Virus genome (UHGV): UHGV-0324072
Source of the DNA: a virus
Direction: 5' to 3' (one strand)
DNA length: 43,215 nt
Shown here piece after piece: positions 1 to 15,145 of the stretch (its first letter is position 1; each line of letters begins with the position of its first letter). The position numbers were made by a program, and so were the translations under genes. Below the pieces are notes generated by a model, which was not told the DNA's origin, searched no databases, and saw only the letters and a list, made by a program, of their open reading frames with translations.

Positions 1-612
1 ACCGAGAGCGTAAAGCATAAGCTGCTTGTTTTCTTTCGCTTCGACGCGATGCCGTCCTGTTTTAAGGTCGCCGATAATGAGCATCGCGGAGTTACTTTCA
101 CCTGTAAAGCCTTCTATAACCGCCACTAAGTCGGCTGTCCCGAATGTCTCTAAATCATCCTCCTTACCTTCTTCACTCTCAGCAGGTACTTTGTAGCCCG
201 GATGCAATACCTCAGTAAGATTGACACGCATTTCCAGCTTGGCGTAAGTCGCTACATCGATAATCGCTTTGCAGTAGTCGGTGTACTTGCGAACCTGTTC
301 AATCATGTCAGCCGTAATCAGTACCGCGCCTTTCATAGGGCTGATTAACGCCTTAATCTGGCCTTTTCCTTCGTCCAGTACATAAGCGCCGACTTCACGT
401 TCTAATGGCAACGCAGTGCCTTTGATGTACTGGTTAAGGTGTATCTCGGCTATGGTGTGCATTGCCGTGCCTAATATCGCAGCTTTACCGGACGTGTCAG
501 GAATATCCTTTTCACAGGCCAGTGATGCGGCGCAGGTTAACCACTTTTTAGCACCTGACGGTGACAGTAAGGCGTGTACGTCGTTATTGCCGCCGCGTTC
601 TTTTAGAATCAT
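1..612 (-). CDS. DUF2800-family PD-(D/E)xK (Cas4/RecB-like) nuclease, N-terminal part; ORF runs off window start and continues in frame at 42547..43215
   Basis: ATG at 612 (RBS GGAGAG upstream); translation MILKERGGNNDVHALLSPSGAKKWLTCAASLACE...; no stop before position 1; family call from motif memory. Confidence 0.6.
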   Translation of the reverse strand, partial: MILKERGGNNDVHALLSPSGAKKWLTCAASLACEKDIPDTSGKAAILGTAMHTIAEIHLNQYIKGTALPLEREVGAYVLDEGKGQIKALISPMKGAVLITADMIEQVRKYTDYCKAIIDVATYAKLEMRVNLTEVLHPGYKVPAESEEGKEDDLETFGTADLVAVIEGFTGESNSAMLIIGDLKTGRHRVEAKENKQLMLYALG

Positions 613-2126: not shown

Positions 2127-4361
2127 CTATTCCAAATCCTCCTCTGTCACCACCAGCATCTCATTTGGTTCGTATAGTGTCTTCGGCCTTAATCTATCCC
2201 CTATTCTTTCGGGTATACGATATGTTCTCGGTACTACTTCGCCGTTAGCATCGCAACCAAGCATTAGTTCTCCATCTTTCAACATTTTATCAAGATGGGT
2301 GTTAGTCACAGAGAAGTCACCGGAACGAGCCACTATCTGCTGCTGAGTAAAACCGCGACCTGTGTCATCTGACTGTTGCAGGTCTTCCAGTGCCGAAAGT
2401 ATTGACTCCTTCCTTACTTCATCCCTGCCGCGTTTAACTTCTTCCTTTACTTTTTGCTTACCTTCTTTCGTCAACCCTTCTTCCCGCTCTTTCTCCTCGT
2501 CAGTTTTGAACGGCTCGAAACCCCACGGCATCAACACAAGCGCCTTGTGTGGTTCAGGAAGGTCCAGGTTTACGATTGTGCCGTATTCTTCTGTGCCCCC
2601 CAGGAACTCAACCGCACGGTACTCTTTCGGCGGCGGAGCTTCGCGGAACTGCACAGACTCCAGCACCATGCCAACCGTTTTCTGTTGAGGACCGTGCTTA
2701 AATTTCGAGTGGTATACGTTTATTTGACGGTCGGTTGCACGTTCGATTGTCAGTTCCACGTCAACACCCGCATACAGCGCCCCACTGCCGCGTGCTTTCT
2801 TTCCGCCCTTCTGCGTATGGTGGACAACGCCTACTGCGGCTTTAGTTGCATCGCGTACTTCTTTCAGAATGGCGATAACTTTACCCATGCCGATTGCTGT
2901 TGATGAACTGTTCTCGTCGAACTTATCAATCGTCAGTGCCAGGGTCTGGTTAAGGGTGTCGAACGCAACCATGCCAATTGGCTCGTCGCCAGCAGTTTCG
3001 CGCATTAACTTAATCAGGCTTTTAAGTTTGCCGACTTCGCCCATATCGATGACGTGTACATAATCTTTACCTTCCCCGCCATATTTAGCCGCTAGTGCAT
3101 CAATACGGGTGCGTGTAGCTGCGCCACCCTCACCATCAATATAGAAATGGTGGCAACGCTGGGTATCCGCCCCCGCAAACCTGTACCCGGCGGCGCTGAG
3201 GTACATCATCCCCAGCGTATAGAACGATTTGTACGTGCCAGATTCCCCGACGATATCCCAGATACAATCCGACGGCATGTACCCCTCAACGACGAAATCA
3301 GCCTTTACCGGCTCCGGTAACTCGTCCCCCTCTGAGTCCTCCTCTGAGTCCTCGTCGTCTTCCAGGTCGTCGAGGCTGCAAGTTACTGGGTCCTCGTTCT
3401 CTGTGCGGTGTAGTTCTTCAATCTCTTCTTCCGGTAAATCAGGCAGAGCCGCACGAATGCTGTTAATGCTGATAGGTTGCTTGTCTACGTTAAGCTCGTC
3501 TGGCAGGCCGCACATACGCAGGGCCAAATGCTGTCGGCGGTTAAGCTCGGTGCAAGCGCCGTTGTTTGTATGCTGGCAGACAAAGCGCACTTCTTTACCG
3601 TCGAGCATTATGCTGGTGGAGCCCTTGCCTGTATGCAGATGTTCGTTAGGGCATGGCACTTCGTACCCGCGCCCGGAAGATAAAGCGTCAAGGCCAAGCT
3701 CGGCTTCGCAGAAGTGTGCTATATCCGCGTTAAGCCCATGCTCATCAGCGGCAAGTGTTTTAGCCTCACGCTTACGCAACCCCATCTCTTCGGCTTTCTT
3801 GATGTACCGCTCGGCACGGATAACACGCCCTTCTGTAACCGTTATCTTCGACTCTTTGTGCGGCAGGTAGATAAGGCGGTTGCCATCTTCCGTGCAGTGG
3901 TCGCGCAACGCTTCGTCTATTTCTAACTCTGCACAAATAGCACGTTGCACCATCCACGCGTCGTTAGAGTTAAACGGCGTGCGAGCTGGAACCAGAACGC
4001 GGAAAGCGTAATCTCCGTTTTTACACACATGCTGATGCGATGCCGTTGTATGCAGAATATTGAAGAACGGTGCGTTCTTGAATTTGCGGGTAAGGTCGCG
4101 GTACTGAGTACGGTTGAGATGGTCAAAATCGAACTTAACCACACTGTCTTCCAGAATAGCGTTCTTACGGCGACCGCCAACAGGCGCAATAGCTTTCTGT
4201 TTAATCTTGGCCGCGTCGTACTCTTCCTTAGTCCATGACGGGTCCACGGATAAACGCTTCGATGTATCGCAGACATACTCCACAAACTGCTCGAGCGGCA
4301 TCTCACGCGCTACAGGGTTTTTATCGAATGTGTTACGCAGCGTTGCAAAAACAATATTCAT
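2127..4361 (-). CDS. DNA primase/helicase fusion (N-terminal primase-polymerase-like region, C-terminal RecA-fold replicative helicase)
   Basis: 744-aa ORF; Walker A-like GESGTYKSF, RecA/DnaB-like helicase segment; Cys/His-rich zinc-binding-like central region; C-terminus VVTEEDLE. Confidence 0.7.
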   Translation of the reverse strand: MNIVFATLRNTFDKNPVAREMPLEQFVEYVCDTSKRLSVDPSWTKEEYDAAKIKQKAIAPVGGRRKNAILEDSVVKFDFDHLNRTQYRDLTRKFKNAPFFNILHTTASHQHVCKNGDYAFRVLVPARTPFNSNDAWMVQRAICAELEIDEALRDHCTEDGNRLIYLPHKESKITVTEGRVIRAERYIKKAEEMGLRKREAKTLAADEHGLNADIAHFCEAELGLDALSSGRGYEVPCPNEHLHTGKGSTSIMLDGKEVRFVCQHTNNGACTELNRRQHLALRMCGLPDELNVDKQPISINSIRAALPDLPEEEIEELHRTENEDPVTCSLDDLEDDEDSEEDSEGDELPEPVKADFVVEGYMPSDCIWDIVGESGTYKSFYTLGMMYLSAAGYRFAGADTQRCHHFYIDGEGGAATRTRIDALAAKYGGEGKDYVHVIDMGEVGKLKSLIKLMRETAGDEPIGMVAFDTLNQTLALTIDKFDENSSSTAIGMGKVIAILKEVRDATKAAVGVVHHTQKGGKKARGSGALYAGVDVELTIERATDRQINVYHSKFKHGPQQKTVGMVLESVQFREAPPPKEYRAVEFLGGTEEYGTIVNLDLPEPHKALVLMPWGFEPFKTDEEKEREEGLTKEGKQKVKEEVKRGRDEVRKESILSALEDLQQSDDTGRGFTQQQIVARSGDFSVTNTHLDKMLKDGELMLGCDANGEVVPRTYRIPERIGDRLRPKTLYEPNEMLVVTEEDLE
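2130..2147. repeat. 18-bp exact repeat TTCCAAATCCTCCTCTGT (second copy 42550..42567), encoding C-terminal TEEDLE of two replication proteins
   Basis: identical nucleotide strings at both gene 3' ends. Confidence 0.8.
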
Positions 4362-9018: not shown

Positions 9019-9047
9019 TTGACTATTACCTACGACCCTATTATATT
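9019..9047 (+). promoter_or_regulatory. sigma70-like promoter TTGACT-N17-TATATT
   Basis: TTGACT 9019..9024, TATATT 9042..9047. Confidence 0.45.
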
Positions 9048-10465: not shown

Positions 10466-10552
10466 GAGCATGAGTCTTGAGGTTGTTATAAGTCTGGTTG
10501 GTCTTAGTTACTTCATTGGGCTATTGGTCGGTTTTCTGTGGGGTAGATACTA

Positions 10553-10723
10553 ATGTTCAGCGACATCAACGCAGCAATCGAAGAAGCAATCTGGCGCCGT
10601 TACAACGGCGAGCAACAGCGTCACTTCTGCCTGGTGCAACGTGGTAACATGGTCGCCGTGGTGCAGGACCGCGATAACAAATATCCGAATGCGATGTGGA
10701 CAACGAGGAATTTCTTAGGATGA
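10553..10723 (+). CDS. small hypothetical protein (56 aa)
   Basis: ATG 10553; plus-strand frame in gap between tracked ORFs; ATGA coupling to next gene. Confidence 0.35.
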   Translation: MFSDINAAIEEAIWRRYNGEQQRHFCLVQRGNMVAVVQDRDNKYPNAMWTTRNFLG

Positions 10724-10956
10724 TTACCAGCATTCCTAACCTGATTAAAGAATATGGCACGATGGCCGAGACATGCCGACAAACCGGCATCAACGAAATG
10801 ACTATTGCTAAGTACAGCAAAGATGTTAACTGCGATCGCCACGTAATTTTTAACAACCGTCTGATGACGCACGTTAAGACAAGCCCGGTGTTATTCACGC
10901 GCCGGGGTATCACTAAAACAGAGCAACGCATTGCTAAAGAGGAGAGTGGGGAATGA
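10720..10956 (+). CDS. hypothetical protein (78 aa)
   Basis: ATG 10720 in frame of track ORF 10696..10956. Confidence 0.4.
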   Translation: MITSIPNLIKEYGTMAETCRQTGINEMTIAKYSKDVNCDRHVIFNNRLMTHVKTSPVLFTRRGITKTEQRIAKEESGE

Positions 10957-10982
10957 GACTACTAGTCTTTCCGAATTCCTGG

Positions 10983-11010
10983 GCTATCGCCGTAGCTATC
11001 GCCGTAGCTA
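10983..11010. repeat. tandem direct repeat GCTATCGCCGTA x2 plus partial third copy
   Basis: copies at 10983..10994 and 10995..11006, then GCTA. Confidence 0.7.
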
Positions 11011-11070
11011 ACGACCATTACGGCGGCGACGGTAAACGAGCGCCACGCCACGGCCTATATAACTGATACA

Positions 11071-11094
11071 AGCCCTCTACGGAGGGCTTTTCTG
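11071..11094 (+). terminator. rho-independent terminator upstream of terminase genes
   Basis: AGCCCTC-tacg-GAGGGCT then TTTCTGT. Confidence 0.5.
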
Positions 11095-11187
11095 TACATC
11101 CCGCCCAATCCCCTTATATAATCCCTTTAGACGCGTAGGGCGCGTCTGGTGCGCTCTGATGGTCAGACGCATATGCAAGGGGATTCT

Positions 11188-11733
11188 ATGAAGCTGAAAC
11201 TTAAGCAGCCATCGCCAGAGGTGGTACAAGCTGCACATGAAGAAGCTGTTAGCGCAAACCGTCGCCGTAAACGACCGCGCGGTAAACAGAGCATTTATCA
11301 ATCATCCCGTAATTCCGCCGCGTTGTGGGACCCGGACTATTGCGATGCATTGATTCGTTTCTTCGACCGCACGTCGTGGGAGCTTGTGCCAACGTCTAAG
11401 GGTGACGAACGCCCACTGATTCAGGATAAACCACCGTCACTGGCCCGCTTCGCCTTACACATCGGAGTCACTATCCCGATTATTAAGCTTTGGCTGCGTG
11501 AGATTCCCGCATTTGCAGAAGCCTGGGAGACAGCACAGGCGCTGGAAGATGCTTATTTCACTGAGACAGGGGCCGCCGGTATCTCGGCTACGTTTGCTGC
11601 CGCTAAGCTGGGCCTCGGCAAAGAGAAACCAGTCGAATCCGCCGAAGAAACAGCACCGACTGAGATTATTTTCAGTGTTGCAGAGCCTGTAGGTAAAATC
11701 GTAACAACGAATATGGGCGAGGCAGAGGAATGA
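11188..11733 (+). CDS. putative terminase small subunit
   Basis: ATG 11188 (RBS AAGGGGA); basic N-terminal region; immediately upstream of and overlapping terL; called by position. Confidence 0.45.
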   Translation: MKLKLKQPSPEVVQAAHEEAVSANRRRKRPRGKQSIYQSSRNSAALWDPDYCDALIRFFDRTSWELVPTSKGDERPLIQDKPPSLARFALHIGVTIPIIKLWLREIPAFAEAWETAQALEDAYFTETGAAGISATFAAAKLGLGKEKPVESAEETAPTEIIFSVAEPVGKIVTTNMGEAEE

Positions 11734-12980
11734 GTATTCAGCTATCCGCACCACAGGCGCTGTTCCTGAATTGTGATAACAAGTACAAAGCTTATGTCGG
11801 TGGGTTCGGCAGCGGAAAGACATTCGTAGGCTGCCTTGACCTGCTTACGTTTATGCTCAAGCACCCTGGTACGCGCCTGGGCTACTTCGGCCCGACATAC
11901 CCGGCCATACGTGACATCTTCTACCCGACATTCGAGGAAGCGGCTAACCTCCTCGGCCTCGATGTGCTGGTTAAATCCGGCGACAAAGAGGTCGTTGTTA
12001 CGCGAGGCAAGACGGTGCTCGGTACGGTTATCTGCCGTTCAATGGATAACCCCGGCTCGATAGTTGGTTTCAAAATCGCTGCGGCGGTCGTGGATGAACT
12101 GGACGTATTGAGCCGTGAGAAAGCCGAGCTGGCGTGGAACAAAATCGTCGCCCGTATGCGTCTGGTTATCCCGGGCGTAATTAACCACATCTCCGTCACC
12201 ACGACACCGGAAGGGTTCAAGTTCGTCTACTCCAAGTTCAAGGAGAACCCGACACCGAGTTACTCTATGGTGCAGGCATCAACTCATGAGAATGCGAGGT
12301 TCCTGCCGCCGGATTACATTAGCTCGCTAACAGAGACTTACCCGGCGCAACTGATTAACGCGTATCTGAATGGTGAGTTCGTCAACCTGACATCCGGCAG
12401 CGTGTATTACGCCTATGACCGCCGTAAGCACCGCAGCAAAGAGACAATTCAACCAGGCGACACTTTGTACATCGGGCAGGACTTCAACGTTACGAAGAAC
12501 GCAAGCGCCGTGTATGTACAACGTAAAGACGGCTGGCACGCGGTAGCAGAACTGAAGGGCCTGTTCGATACGCCGGACACCGTGCGCGTAATCACCGAGA
12601 AATGGAAGTCGCAAGGCCACCGCATCGTCGTTTACCCCGACGCCAGCGGCAAGAACCGAAAAACCAACTCAGCGTCAATCTCTGATATTGCATTACTCCA
12701 GCAGGCTGGGTTCGATGTTCGCGCTAAATCAGCCAACCCCCCGGTTAAAGACCGTGTTTTAGCCGTGAATACCGCGCTGGAAAAAGGTAAGCTGTGGATT
12801 AACGACCACTTATGCCCTGAGATAGCGAAGACGCTGGAGCAGCAGGCATATGACGATAACGGAGAGCCAGCTAAAGACGGCATCATTGACCATATGGCAG
12901 ATGCGCTCGGCTATCCTGTAGTTTACGAGATGCCGGTGGTTAAACCCGTAATCAACATCCCGGTGACTTTCGCACTTTAA
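11730..12980 (+). CDS. terminase large subunit
   Basis: Walker A GGFGSGKT near N-terminus; 416 aa; ATGA overlap with upstream gene. Confidence 0.8.
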   Translation: MSIQLSAPQALFLNCDNKYKAYVGGFGSGKTFVGCLDLLTFMLKHPGTRLGYFGPTYPAIRDIFYPTFEEAANLLGLDVLVKSGDKEVVVTRGKTVLGTVICRSMDNPGSIVGFKIAAAVVDELDVLSREKAELAWNKIVARMRLVIPGVINHISVTTTPEGFKFVYSKFKENPTPSYSMVQASTHENARFLPPDYISSLTETYPAQLINAYLNGEFVNLTSGSVYYAYDRRKHRSKETIQPGDTLYIGQDFNVTKNASAVYVQRKDGWHAVAELKGLFDTPDTVRVITEKWKSQGHRIVVYPDASGKNRKTNSASISDIALLQQAGFDVRAKSANPPVKDRVLAVNTALEKGKLWINDHLCPEIAKTLEQQAYDDNGEPAKDGIIDHMADALGYPVVYEMPVVKPVINIPVTFAL

Positions 12981-12992
12981 GAGGATTATTCA

Positions 12993-14462
12993 ATGTTAAC
13001 TATGCACGGTCAGAATCAGGGTGTTAAGACAAAACACCGGGAATGGCTGCATCACTTCGATAAATGGCAGAAGGTGCGCCACGCACTGGAAGGCGACCTT
13101 ATTCGCTACCTCCGTAATGTAGGGAAGAACGAGCCAGACCCTACCTACGCAGCCCAGCGCCAGGAAGAATACGAGAACGGTGCTATCTGCTACAACTTCA
13201 CAAAACGTACCCTGGCCGGGATGGTGGGGTCGGTGATGCGCAAAGACCCTGAGCAGATTATCCCGCCTGAACTGGAGTACCTGTTACGCAATGCTGACGG
13301 TTCCGGTGTCGGGCTGTGGCAGCACGCGCAGGACACTTTGATGGAGATTGATTCTGTGGGTCGTGGCGGGTTGCTGGTGGACGCCCCGGAGACAGCCGCG
13401 GCAACGGCGGCAGAACAGAACGCGGGGTTATTAAACCCGGTCATAGCATTCTACACCGCTGAGAACATCATCAACTGGCGACTGACTCGCATCGGTTCTG
13501 TTAACCGTGTGACGATGGTTGTGTTGCGCGAGGTATGGGAATACTCGGAACCGGGCGCAGAGTTCGAAACAAAGTTCGGGGAACAGTATCGTGTTCTTGA
13601 CCTGATTGAGGGCCGCTACCGCCAGCGCATTTACCGCTTCGATGCCGAAGGTGGCGCTCAGGACGAAGTAATCGAAATCTTCCCGGAACTTGGCGAACAG
13701 TTACGCGGCAAAATCCCGTTCACATTCATCGGGGCAAGCAACAACGATGCGACCATCGACGATGCTCCTTTGCTGCCGTTGGCTGAGCTTAATATCGGGC
13801 ATTTCCGCAACAGCGCGGACAATGAGGAGTCGAGCTTCGTTGTAGGCCAGCCCACGCTGTTTATCGCCCCCGGCGAGAACATGAGCATGGAACAGTGGAA
13901 AGAGGCCAACCCTCACGGTGTGCGCATGGGGTCGCGCTCAGGCCATAACATCGGTTACGGAGGTAATGCGTTTCTTGTCCAGGCGGGGGAGAATAACCTT
14001 GCCAAGCAGAACATGCTGGATAAAGAGAATCAGGCAATCCAGATTGGCGCACAGCTTATCACCCCGACGCAGCAAATCACCGCAGAATCGGCCCGCCTGC
14101 AACGCGGCGCTGATACTTCAGTTATGGCGACAATCGCGCGTAACGTAAGCATGGCGTATACAGACGCGTTGCTCTGGGTAGCTGCGATGCTCGGATTGCG
14201 TGAAGGCACAGAGGTTGATTTCAAACTGAATATGGAGTTCTTCCTGCAACCGATGACCGCTCAGGACCGTGCACAGTGGATGGCGGACATTAACGCCGGT
14301 TTGCTACCCGCCACTGCTTACTATGCTGCGTTGCGTAAGGCGGGTGTAACTGACTGGACTGACGAGGATATTCAGAACGCTATCGAGGATGCGCCTCTGC
14401 CGTTAGGTGCTGTTACTCAGGTGGCAGGGGAGATTCCGCAGTCGGTGCAGCAGCAGGAGTAA
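12993..14462 (+). CDS. portal protein
   Basis: 489-aa ORF directly after terL; RBS AAGAGGA; called by position and size. Confidence 0.65.
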   Translation: MLTMHGQNQGVKTKHREWLHHFDKWQKVRHALEGDLIRYLRNVGKNEPDPTYAAQRQEEYENGAICYNFTKRTLAGMVGSVMRKDPEQIIPPELEYLLRNADGSGVGLWQHAQDTLMEIDSVGRGGLLVDAPETAAATAAEQNAGLLNPVIAFYTAENIINWRLTRIGSVNRVTMVVLREVWEYSEPGAEFETKFGEQYRVLDLIEGRYRQRIYRFDAEGGAQDEVIEIFPELGEQLRGKIPFTFIGASNNDATIDDAPLLPLAELNIGHFRNSADNEESSFVVGQPTLFIAPGENMSMEQWKEANPHGVRMGSRSGHNIGYGGNAFLVQAGENNLAKQNMLDKENQAIQIGAQLITPTQQITAESARLQRGADTSVMATIARNVSMAYTDALLWVAAMLGLREGTEVDFKLNMEFFLQPMTAQDRAQWMADINAGLLPATAYYAALRKAGVTDWTDEDIQNAIEDAPLPLGAVTQVAGEIPQSVQQQE

Positions 14463-14467
14463 AGAAA

Positions 14468-14487
14468 AAGGCCCCGCTAGGGGCCTT
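14468..14487. terminator. bidirectional hairpin terminator AAGGCCCC-gcta-GGGGCCTT
   Basis: perfect 8-bp GC-rich stem between convergent genes. Confidence 0.6.
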
Positions 14488-14491
14488 AGCT

Positions 14492-15145
14492 TTAACGTAT
14501 ATTAGCCGCACATTTACGCACAACCCGAGGTATCGCCTCTTTCAGTTCACCCCATGTATTAACGGCCTCCATGTCAAGAAGTGTCACCAGAGCTTTCTGG
14601 ATGTCACTTCGCAACTGATTGGTCTTCGCATCCTGAGAGTCCCATGTATCGAAACCCGTTACGTCGCGGATATCTACGGATTCCTTTACCGCTTTAGCCA
14701 CCTGTATGAAGTGTCCACTGTGGCCAATTCTTCCCTCCGTGCGCTCAATCATTCGACTAACGGCAGCGTTAAGCTCGACAAAGCTCACCGCGCCAATGTT
14801 TCGTAGTTCTACCTGCCGTTGTGTGATAAAGCGGTCGATAACGAGGAAATGGAAATAGGCGCTGTATTGCTCAGCAATATATACTGCCAGATGGAGACAT
14901 GCAAAGGTGCGACCGTTTCGGCCTTTCGTCGCCCTTATGGCATTCTCGATTCCGAGTTGTTTTTCGCATTCCTCCTTGAAAATCTTGAAGCCATCCGTTG
15001 CCATGACCTGGCGAAGCTCTCTTGCCCCCATGCCGTTGTCTAAACGCCAACGGTTCATCTGGTCAACCAGCTCGTTTACGTTAATAAAGTTTTCACGGTC
15101 AAAAGTGATTTCTCCATAAGGGAACTCTAATGTTTGCAGTTTCAT
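14492..15145 (-). CDS. KilA-N domain protein (217 aa), reverse-oriented insertion
   Basis: KGRNGRTFACLHLAVYIAEQYSAYFHFLVIDRF resembles the KilA-N core; ATG 15145 with AGGAG RBS. Confidence 0.5.
   Translation of the reverse strand: MKLQTLEFPYGEITFDRENFINVNELVDQMNRWRLDNGMGARELRQVMATDGFKIFKEECEKQLGIENAIRATKGRNGRTFACLHLAVYIAEQYSAYFHFLVIDRFITQRQVELRNIGAVSFVELNAAVSRMIERTEGRIGHSGHFIQVAKAVKESVDIRDVTGFDTWDSQDAKTNQLRSDIQKALVTLLDMEAVNTWGELKEAIPRVVRKCAANIR

Follow-up and report, generated by a model that had tools for sequence, protein, structure and literature searches.

The small terminase subunit gene (terS) of the 43,215-nucleotide virus genome UHGV-0324072 (hereafter the window; all positions refer to its given strand, the plus strand) is preceded by a short leader with two hairpins. 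We propose, with moderate confidence, that this leader lies at an operon boundary, where a terminator and a promoter are followed by a 5'-terminal leader of two hairpins that stabilizes or insulates the mRNA of the packaging operon and leaves its ribosome-binding site (RBS) exposed. By its matches to phage records, the window belongs to Kagunavirus (Guernseyvirinae siphophages of Escherichia coli). The 1.5 kb surrounding the leader matched 180 phage records at 80-99% identity, which were Escherichia and Salmonella siphophages of the Guernseyvirinae with Kagunavirus as the nearest, and TerS shares 99.4% identity with its counterpart in the BASEL phage Bas73. A preliminary description made from the sequence alone had correctly taken the region for a regulatory leader of the small terminase gene; it had further suggested a switch between two mutually exclusive hairpins or a terminase recognition region, and the promoter between terminator and hairpins was absent from it.

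Ensemble folding of the plus-strand leader RNA predicts two adjoining hairpins. Hairpin 1 (11129..11147, extendable by a U-G pair to 11128..11148) has a stem of 8-9 bp and the loop AGG, and starts at or no more than 2 nt from the predicted 5' end. Hairpin 2 (11149..11172) consists of a lower stem GUGCG/CGCAU, a bulged C, an upper stem UCUGA/UCAGA and the loop UGG; in the minimum free energy structure as well as in the ensemble, 11149..11159 pair locally with 11163..11172, directly adjoining hairpin 1. The mean pair probability in the predicted ensemble is 0.97 for hairpin 1 and 0.96 for hairpin 2. Taken on the window sequence alone, the fold is unremarkable (z = -1.7; 14 of 200 shuffled sequences fold as well), so its significance comes only from the comparison with relatives.

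The comparison drew on IMG/VR, GenBank phages and metagenomes, which gave 74 distinct leader contexts. Alignment A1 was made with MAFFT, comprises 38 distinct sequences from the -10 hexamer through the ATG of terS and carries no model-fit bias; alignment A5 was fitted to a covariance model and comprises 24 distinct sequences including Klebsiella and Dhillonvirus phages (it replaced a MAFFT alignment, A4, in which Dhillonvirus was out of structural register in hairpin 1). RNAalifold, run unguided on A1, returned exactly the two tandem hairpins. Among the A1 cells, 98% are paired in hairpin 1 and 98.9% in hairpin 2, and compensatory pairs are present (at 11156:11166, 19 distinct sequences have C-G and 19 have A-U). 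All one-sided changes in both hairpins retain a standard pair, mostly as a new G-U (A to G opposite U, or C to U opposite G). Because such changes are mismatches on the minus strand or in duplex DNA, they indicate selection on the plus-strand RNA and not on duplex DNA. Judged from these alignments, the substitutions show the two hairpins to be a conserved structure of the plus-strand RNA.

A covariance model built from the 47-column two-hairpin element identified a single copy in the window (11128..11172, 68.7 bits); no second copy was found, the next best match reaching 9.2 bits. The model also matched the Klebsiella phage VLCpiS11a and genomes of Dhillonvirus, in each case between the -10 hexamer and terS. 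In these phages the stems are largely replaced (AGAUGGC/GCCGUCU, AGGUGGU/GCCACCU or GUGGCCC/GGGCCGC in hairpin 1; GCCGA/UCGGC or GCGUA/UACGC in the upper stem of hairpin 2), and the hairpins, their spacing and their loops are retained. In A5, 95.6% of the cells are paired, compared with 15-61% in slid controls, and both-side changes occur in 11 of the 19 pairs; none of 500 shuffles was as high. In the upper stem of hairpin 2, 100% of the A5 cells are paired, four of the five pairs show compensatory changes and the closing A-U is invariant. The two-hairpin fold is kept in Kagunavirus, Jerseyvirus, Cornellvirus, phiEap-2-like, Hafnia and Klebsiella phages and in Dhillonvirus. Upstream of terS in Citrobacter phage K1M and Pectobacterium phage Ymer, which have TerS homologues, the element was not found. 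A scan of 10500..11800 against Rfam 15 (E <=10) assigned no family; it returned one chance match to nos_TCE (18.8 bits against a gathering score of 60).

The boundary upstream of the hairpins begins with an intrinsic terminator of the preceding operon (11070..11092, plus strand), identified by inverted-repeat search and covariation. It has a perfect 8-bp G+C stem (AAGCCCTC and GAGGGCTT, 11070..11077 pairing with 11082..11089), a 4-nt loop TACG and a T-run with the tail TTTTC. The arms covary among the lineages (AGCCCTC/GAGGGCT; AGCACTC/GAGTGCT in L184; GCCCGC/GCGGGC in the Jersey, Cornell, Eap-2 and Hafnia lineages), and the terminator hairpin that had been placed at 11071..11094 is real. Its U-tract, TTTTCTGT, is short and interrupted, and the terminator was not listed by a simple consensus scan; the tract of relatives reads TTCTTTT(T)G. 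Relatives carry different genes upstream, and the mosaic boundary falls exactly at the terminator.

A predicted sigma-70-type promoter follows on the plus strand (11093..11122; a 10/12 match in the consensus scan), with the -35 hexamer TGTACA at 11093..11098, an 18-nt spacer and the -10 hexamer TATAAT at 11117..11122. From this geometry transcription is predicted, though not mapped, to start at about 11129. The pattern TGTACA-N17-19-TAYAAT occurs once in the 43-kb window against 0.04 expected. Among 51 distinct Kagunavirus contexts, no variation was found at 11093..11099 or 11115..11123, and variation was found at 11100..11114 and 11124..11126; this footprint, with invariant hexamers and a variable spacer, fits a promoter. 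TATAAT or TACAAT stands at the equivalent place in the Jerseyvirus, Cornellvirus, phiEap-2-like, Hafnia, Klebsiella and Dhillonvirus relatives, and the distance from the -10 hexamer to the first paired base of hairpin 1 is 5-9 nt in every lineage, so that the stem would begin between about -1 and +3 relative to the predicted start. The arrangement resembles the known early/late operon boundaries of phages, in which a terminator is followed by a promoter: a G+C hairpin with a T-run stands 3 nt past the last upstream stop codon, the -35 hexamer abuts the T-run and the mosaic breakpoint of the upstream genes lies at the terminator, with no unusual feature.

At the other end of the leader, the Shine-Dalgarno sequence AAGGGGA (11177..11183, plus strand) lies 4 nt past hairpin 2 and 4 nt before the ATG at 11188. 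The spacing of 4 nt between the last hairpin and the RBS had been described correctly, but the RBS itself had been placed 2 nt off, at 11175..11181, where the sequence reads GCAAGGG. In the promoter-initiated transcript of the window the Shine-Dalgarno sequence is predicted to be mostly unpaired (probability of being unpaired 0.57-0.62), and an open RBS was predicted in such RNA for all 12 representatives (0.39-0.74).

In the arrangement that we propose, the upstream, early-side operon would end with a microgene (33 aa in relatives) and the intrinsic terminator, and a host sigma-70-type promoter would then start the packaging operon terS-terL-portal. The two adjoining stable hairpins would open the 59-nt 5' untranslated leader, no farther than about 2 nt from the predicted start, and the short A/U-rich single-stranded linker behind them would carry the exposed RBS. 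The 5'-terminal stem-loop may shield the mRNA against 5'-end-dependent decay; the two hairpins may lock up the leader so that the RBS is not trapped by adjacent sequence, and would leave little naked RNA ahead of the translation start. Stabilizing 5'-terminal stem-loops of this kind, of the type of the ompA 5' untranslated region, were reportedly described by Emory, Bouvet and Belasco in 1992 and by Arnold, Yu and Belasco in 1998. The ompA-type leader likewise has a stem-loop at or a few nt from the 5' end, then a second hairpin and a single-stranded segment with the RBS, and its structure is likewise conserved more than the sequence of its stems. It is longer, however (133 nt versus 59 nt), and for the window both the transcription start and the stabilizing effect are predictions.

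Several observations weigh against this proposal. The -35 hexamer is weak (TGTACA, with an 18-nt spacer), and the number of promoter-like matches of all kinds that the consensus scan found in the window is about that expected (4 versus 3.8). Literature searches found no transcript map or transcriptome study of these genera, and the 5'-terminal placing of hairpin 1 depends on the promoter prediction because the start site is itself predicted. The fitting of A5 to a model inflates its pairing somewhat, although the unbiased A1 points the same way. The Dhillonvirus and Klebsiella matches are modest (16-21 bits, E 0.0014-0.25 by search size) and are trusted mainly because they occupy the same position between promoter and terS, and recent exchange of DNA by recombination among related phages could account for some of the conservation. 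Finally, the alignments show no change in A-UGG-U of hairpin 2, and in hairpin 1 nearly every sequence has an NGG loop, with AGA as the other form. This conservation of loops and closing pairs exceeds what a structured leader requires, and it is also where the window differs from the ompA type, taken as a purely steric element; it hints at a specific partner.

Such a partner is central to another explanation, which we consider possible but rather unlikely: the two hairpins, with their loops NGG and UGG, would be a sequence-specific cis-regulatory RNA of Guernseyvirinae and Dhillonvirus, bound by a phage or host protein (a translational repressor or activator) or, like the put RNAs, by RNA polymerase, and would govern the strength or timing with which the packaging genes are expressed. 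Besides the constancy of the loops and of the closing A-U, the element is conserved above its flanking genes (identity of about 77% between the window and the Cornellvirus lineage, as against only 31% for their TerS proteins), although conserved loops can also come from shared ancestry. Two adjoining stem-loops right behind a promoter resemble putL of phage HK022 (PMC9378689), and strong terminator-like hairpins stand farther down the late-gene strand (17357, 19748 and 24374). Both put and the window element would be cis-acting nascent RNAs with two adjoining stem-loops, a few nt past a sigma-70 start at the head of a phage operon. The put RNAs, however, are about 70-73 nt long and V-shaped, with long bulged stems, a triplex in stem I and a dependence on the beta-prime zinc-binding domain of RNA polymerase (PMC9378689), whereas the window element has 45 nt and two simple hairpins of 8-10 bp, with no triplex and no bulged long stems; the likeness is one of described features. 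Moreover, the terminator scan found no strong internal terminator in the terS-terL-portal unit (about 3.3 kb), and no candidate binding protein was identified.

A translational block of early transcripts, of the kind reportedly described by McPheeters et al. in 1986 for the lysozyme (e) and soc genes of phage T4, might operate as well, possibly alongside the structured leader that we favor; we consider it, too, possible but rather unlikely. Two pyrimidine-rich copies complementary to the RBS were found as inverted repeats at 11107..11128 (plus strand): complementarity is perfect over 9 nt between AATCCCCTT (11107..11115) and AAGGGGATT (11177..11185), and nearly so for AATCCCTTT (11120..11128). 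As 11107..11128 precedes the predicted start, only read-through transcripts would contain it; in these, the -10/discriminator region would pair with the Shine-Dalgarno sequence and start codon and block translation of terS; promoter-initiated transcripts, being without that arm, would be translated. When read-through RNAs are folded, a helix with 11177..11189 closes around both hairpins (z = -3.6), and the predicted accessibility of the RBS falls from 0.4-0.7 to 0.01-0.2 in Kagunavirus, Jerseyvirus and Hafnia representatives. Upstream-shuffled controls, however, still often occlude the RBS (mean 0.24-0.34), so that the observed occlusion is marginal in the window and in Hafnia (p ~0.04) and not significant in the Jersey, Eap-2 and Cornell representatives. 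Two covarying pairs of A1 (6:77 and 12:71, including TATAAT/ATTATA versus TACAAT/ATTGTA) and a similar complementarity visible in Dhillonvirus speak for the helix, but just 84-85% of its A1 cells are paired, with many mismatches, RNAalifold does not predict it, and the complementarity is lost in L160 and by eye weak in L222. It is also in part a trivial result of a -10 hexamer and CC on one side and GG and ATT on the other. As in T4 e and soc, the promoter lies between the RBS-complementary upstream sequence and the RBS, so only read-through RNA can sequester the latter; the T4 hairpin is short-range and experimentally proven, whereas the helix of the window is long-range, spanning two hairpins, imperfect and lost in some lineages.

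In headful phages, pac sites often lie within or close to terS. This textbook placing would suit a leader that acts as DNA, either as a pac or terminase-recognition site or as a palindromic operator for a dimeric repressor at +1..+19, both of which we hold to be improbable. Hairpin 1 of the window is a perfect 7-N5-7 palindrome, but the substitutions among relatives retain plus-strand pairing (mostly as G-U) and break the symmetry of the DNA palindrome. Neither is AGACGCG enriched in the window (11 matches versus 8.9 expected, on which ground it was rejected as a repeated operator motif) nor is the whole element repeated elsewhere in it. The identity of the leader to that of Cornellvirus, set against the divergence of TerS, shows no co-evolution of a site with the protein. 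Jerseyviruses package by the headful mechanism and their pac site is unmapped (PMC10783031, PMC9409062); for the Kagunavirus fBC-Eco01, PhageTerm found no defined termini and the genome is permuted (PMC9825357), which speaks against a site of this kind. GenBank records that begin here reflect the habit of annotators of opening the genome at terS. A terminase recognition region, as put forward in the preliminary description, thus finds no support, since the leader is conserved despite divergent TerS proteins and its substitutions point to selection on RNA.

Records that start inside the leader were also considered as physical genome ends; this was rejected, their starts being either an annotated upstream start codon or the convention of opening at terS. 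In the Cornellvirus and Hafnia lineages (L150-L152 and L149), hairpin 1 (GGTGCGCAGGGC / GATGCGCAGAGC) matches the cos sequence of phage Chi, GGTGCGCAGAGC, at 11 of 12 positions. A link to this 12-nt cohesive end (L210:11231..11242) was judged a coincidence, as it lies in an unrelated intergenic region, without flanking similarity and about 10 kb from the terS of Chi.

It is very improbable that 11149..11187 encodes an N-terminal extension of TerS or a conserved upstream open reading frame (ORF). A GTG or ATG at 11149 is retained in all Guernseyvirinae lineages, the frame is open into terS in Kagunavirus, Jerseyvirus, Cornellvirus and phiEap-2 itself, and GenBank records PQ850603 (Bas73, CDS 1..585) and MF158037 (St162 gp32) are annotated with the upstream start. 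The frame is not conserved, however: the upstream start is out of frame in the phiEap-2-like L138, L139 and L131, in Hafnia phage TS33 and in Dhillonvirus, and an extension from GTG 11149 was rejected on this ground. The variation at the bulge position (C/T/A) is synonymous for Arg, but the remaining substitutions are non-synonymous and yet preserve pairing (S to Y with Q to H; R to L with R to G). Upstream of 11149, nothing but the loop of hairpin 1 resembles a Shine-Dalgarno sequence, whereas the ATG at 11188 has a strong one before it; a good one precedes the downstream ATG in all lineages, and every TerS begins with MK there. Several GenBank records begin TerS at the upstream GTG or ATG inside hairpin 2, and some IMG/VR isolate records open 39 nt before terS. 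Given the non-conserved frame, the upstream start in database records is probably a recurrent mis-annotation by 13-15 codons.

The switch between two stems is the least tenable of the explanations, and we give it almost no weight. The inverted repeats on which it was founded do exist (AGACGCG at 11129..11135 and CGCGTCT at 11141..11147 around the loop TAGGG; GCGTCTG at 11142..11148 and CAGACGC at 11164..11170), and since both include 11142..11147 the two stems are geometrically exclusive, as had been noted; the second stem, however, is not the predicted fold of the RNA. Its pair probability is close to 0, the most stable fold in which it occurs lies 7.7-9.0 kcal/mol above the tandem fold, and its helix has no compensatory pairs, four of the seven pairs being broken in some A1 sequences. 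The central pair is broken in 19 of the 38 A1 sequences (all 19 outside Kagunavirus) and the outer pair in 12, and the substitution that breaks the central pair (G to T at 11166) is compensated within hairpin 2 (C to A at 11156). In four lineages the 3' arm is interrupted by a 2-nt insertion, and no Rfam riboswitch was matched. The overlap of the arms is a by-product of the occurrence of AGACGC in both Kagunavirus hairpins.

Other readings of hairpin 2 were tried and rejected. An upstream ORF from the AUG in its loop is not conserved (it ends with AUGA over the terS start in the window and stops after five codons in Jerseyvirus). A sigma-dependent pause element was considered for the TATGAT in hairpin 2 of lineages outside Kagunavirus; the window reads TCTGAT, in which the key A is missing.

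The two-hairpin element is not in Rfam, and literature searches turned up no description of it. We interpret it as a new and well-supported example of a familiar type of element, the structured 5' leaders of phage operons, and not as a new kind of system; if it were true that it binds a specific factor, it would be a new family of regulatory RNA absent from Rfam. Kagunavirus, Jerseyvirus and Dhillonvirus belong to the E. coli and Salmonella phages most often isolated for therapy and biocontrol, and a conserved promoter with a covarying 45-nt RNA motif at the head of the packaging operon offers a concrete and easily mutated target for studies of late-gene control. For annotation, the TerS start in GenBank records would have to be moved out of the leader hairpin. 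The case also illustrates that overlapping inverted repeats in one sequence are weak evidence for a switch, and that comparison across lineages settles the matter quickly.

The last gene of the upstream operon is a microgene (10953..11066, plus strand, in the ORF list) of 37 aa in the window and 33 aa in relatives. Its ATG overlaps the stop codon of the preceding NinH-like gene (ATGA), and its product aligns along its whole length with phrog_32259 (E 3e-12; residues 1-37 on profile positions 1-33 of 33). Over about 80 related loci there are 34 protein variants with a nearly invariant C-terminus, NDHYGGDGKRAPRHGLYN, and changes that are mostly synonymous or conservative, i.e., a coding-type conservation. 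An unannotated 33-aa homologue is present in Warwickvirus tonnikala (L153, around 2450..2560 of that locus), a member of the otherwise unrelated Drexlerviridae, with 86% nucleotide identity over 50 nt; by its sequence matches, the phrog_32259 microgene is a small mobile gene.

Within the microgene, the tandem 12-mer with a partial third copy at 10983..11010 was confirmed as described: GCTATCGCCGTA occupies 10983..10994 and 10995..11006 and is followed by GCTA at 11007..11010 (Tandem Repeats Finder: period 12, 2.3 copies, 100% match, score 56). The duplication is in frame (AIAV-AIAV-A), and the four additional residues of the window protein are exactly the duplicated AIAV. As perfect tandem duplications of period 9-15 number 2 in the window against 0.16 in shuffles, the repeat is a real duplication and not chance. 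All 33 other variants of the microgene have a single copy (32 of them are 33 aa long and one is 35 aa), so the duplication is private to the window. It had been tied to the terS leader, but because it lies inside a separate coding gene upstream of the terminator and is private to the window, it is not part of that leader; it is evidently a recent in-frame slippage duplication in a genuine microgene.

Some relatives (L011 and L022; in GenBank KMB36, ZCEC5, LM02P1 and NBSal006) have an additional 130-240 bp in this region, as seen in a two-piece alignment. L011 and L022 diverge right behind the stop codon of the microgene, which suggests a further small moron gene before the terminator; the terminator-promoter-leader block is intact in both.

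Up to 11066 the window carries small early-type genes on the plus strand, and the structural genes begin with terS (11188..11733, plus strand; 181 aa, matching phrog_3064 'terminase' with E 6.5e-72), followed in the ORF list by terL (11730..12980) and the portal gene (12993..14462) on the same strand. Right behind the portal gene, a 217-aa gene on the minus strand (14492..15145) breaks the plus-strand late region, with a terminator-like hairpin near it at 14468..14487. Because of this opposite-strand gene, transcription from the promoter at 11093..11122 probably covers only one unit, terS-terL-portal.

Inside terS, an imperfect 15-nt tandem repeat, ACCGTCGCCGTAAACG (11258..11287; 1.9 copies, 86% match), encodes the basic stretch RRRKRPRGK close to the N-terminus of TerS and is partly complementary to 11018..11033 of the upstream microgene. 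Elsewhere in the window, the palindrome AATAGT-N4-ACTATT is strongly over-represented, with 23 strand matches (<=1 mismatch) against 1.8 expected. Its sites are mostly intergenic (about 1806, 1850, 5461, 6650, 9014, 17052, 17143, 26175, 38779 and 42338); none is at the terS leader, and one copy overlaps a sigma-70-like promoter at 9019..9047. The palindrome is the PHIRE 'phage promoter' consensus reported for the Kagunavirus fBC-Eco01 (PMC9825357), and it is probably the operator of a phage regulator.

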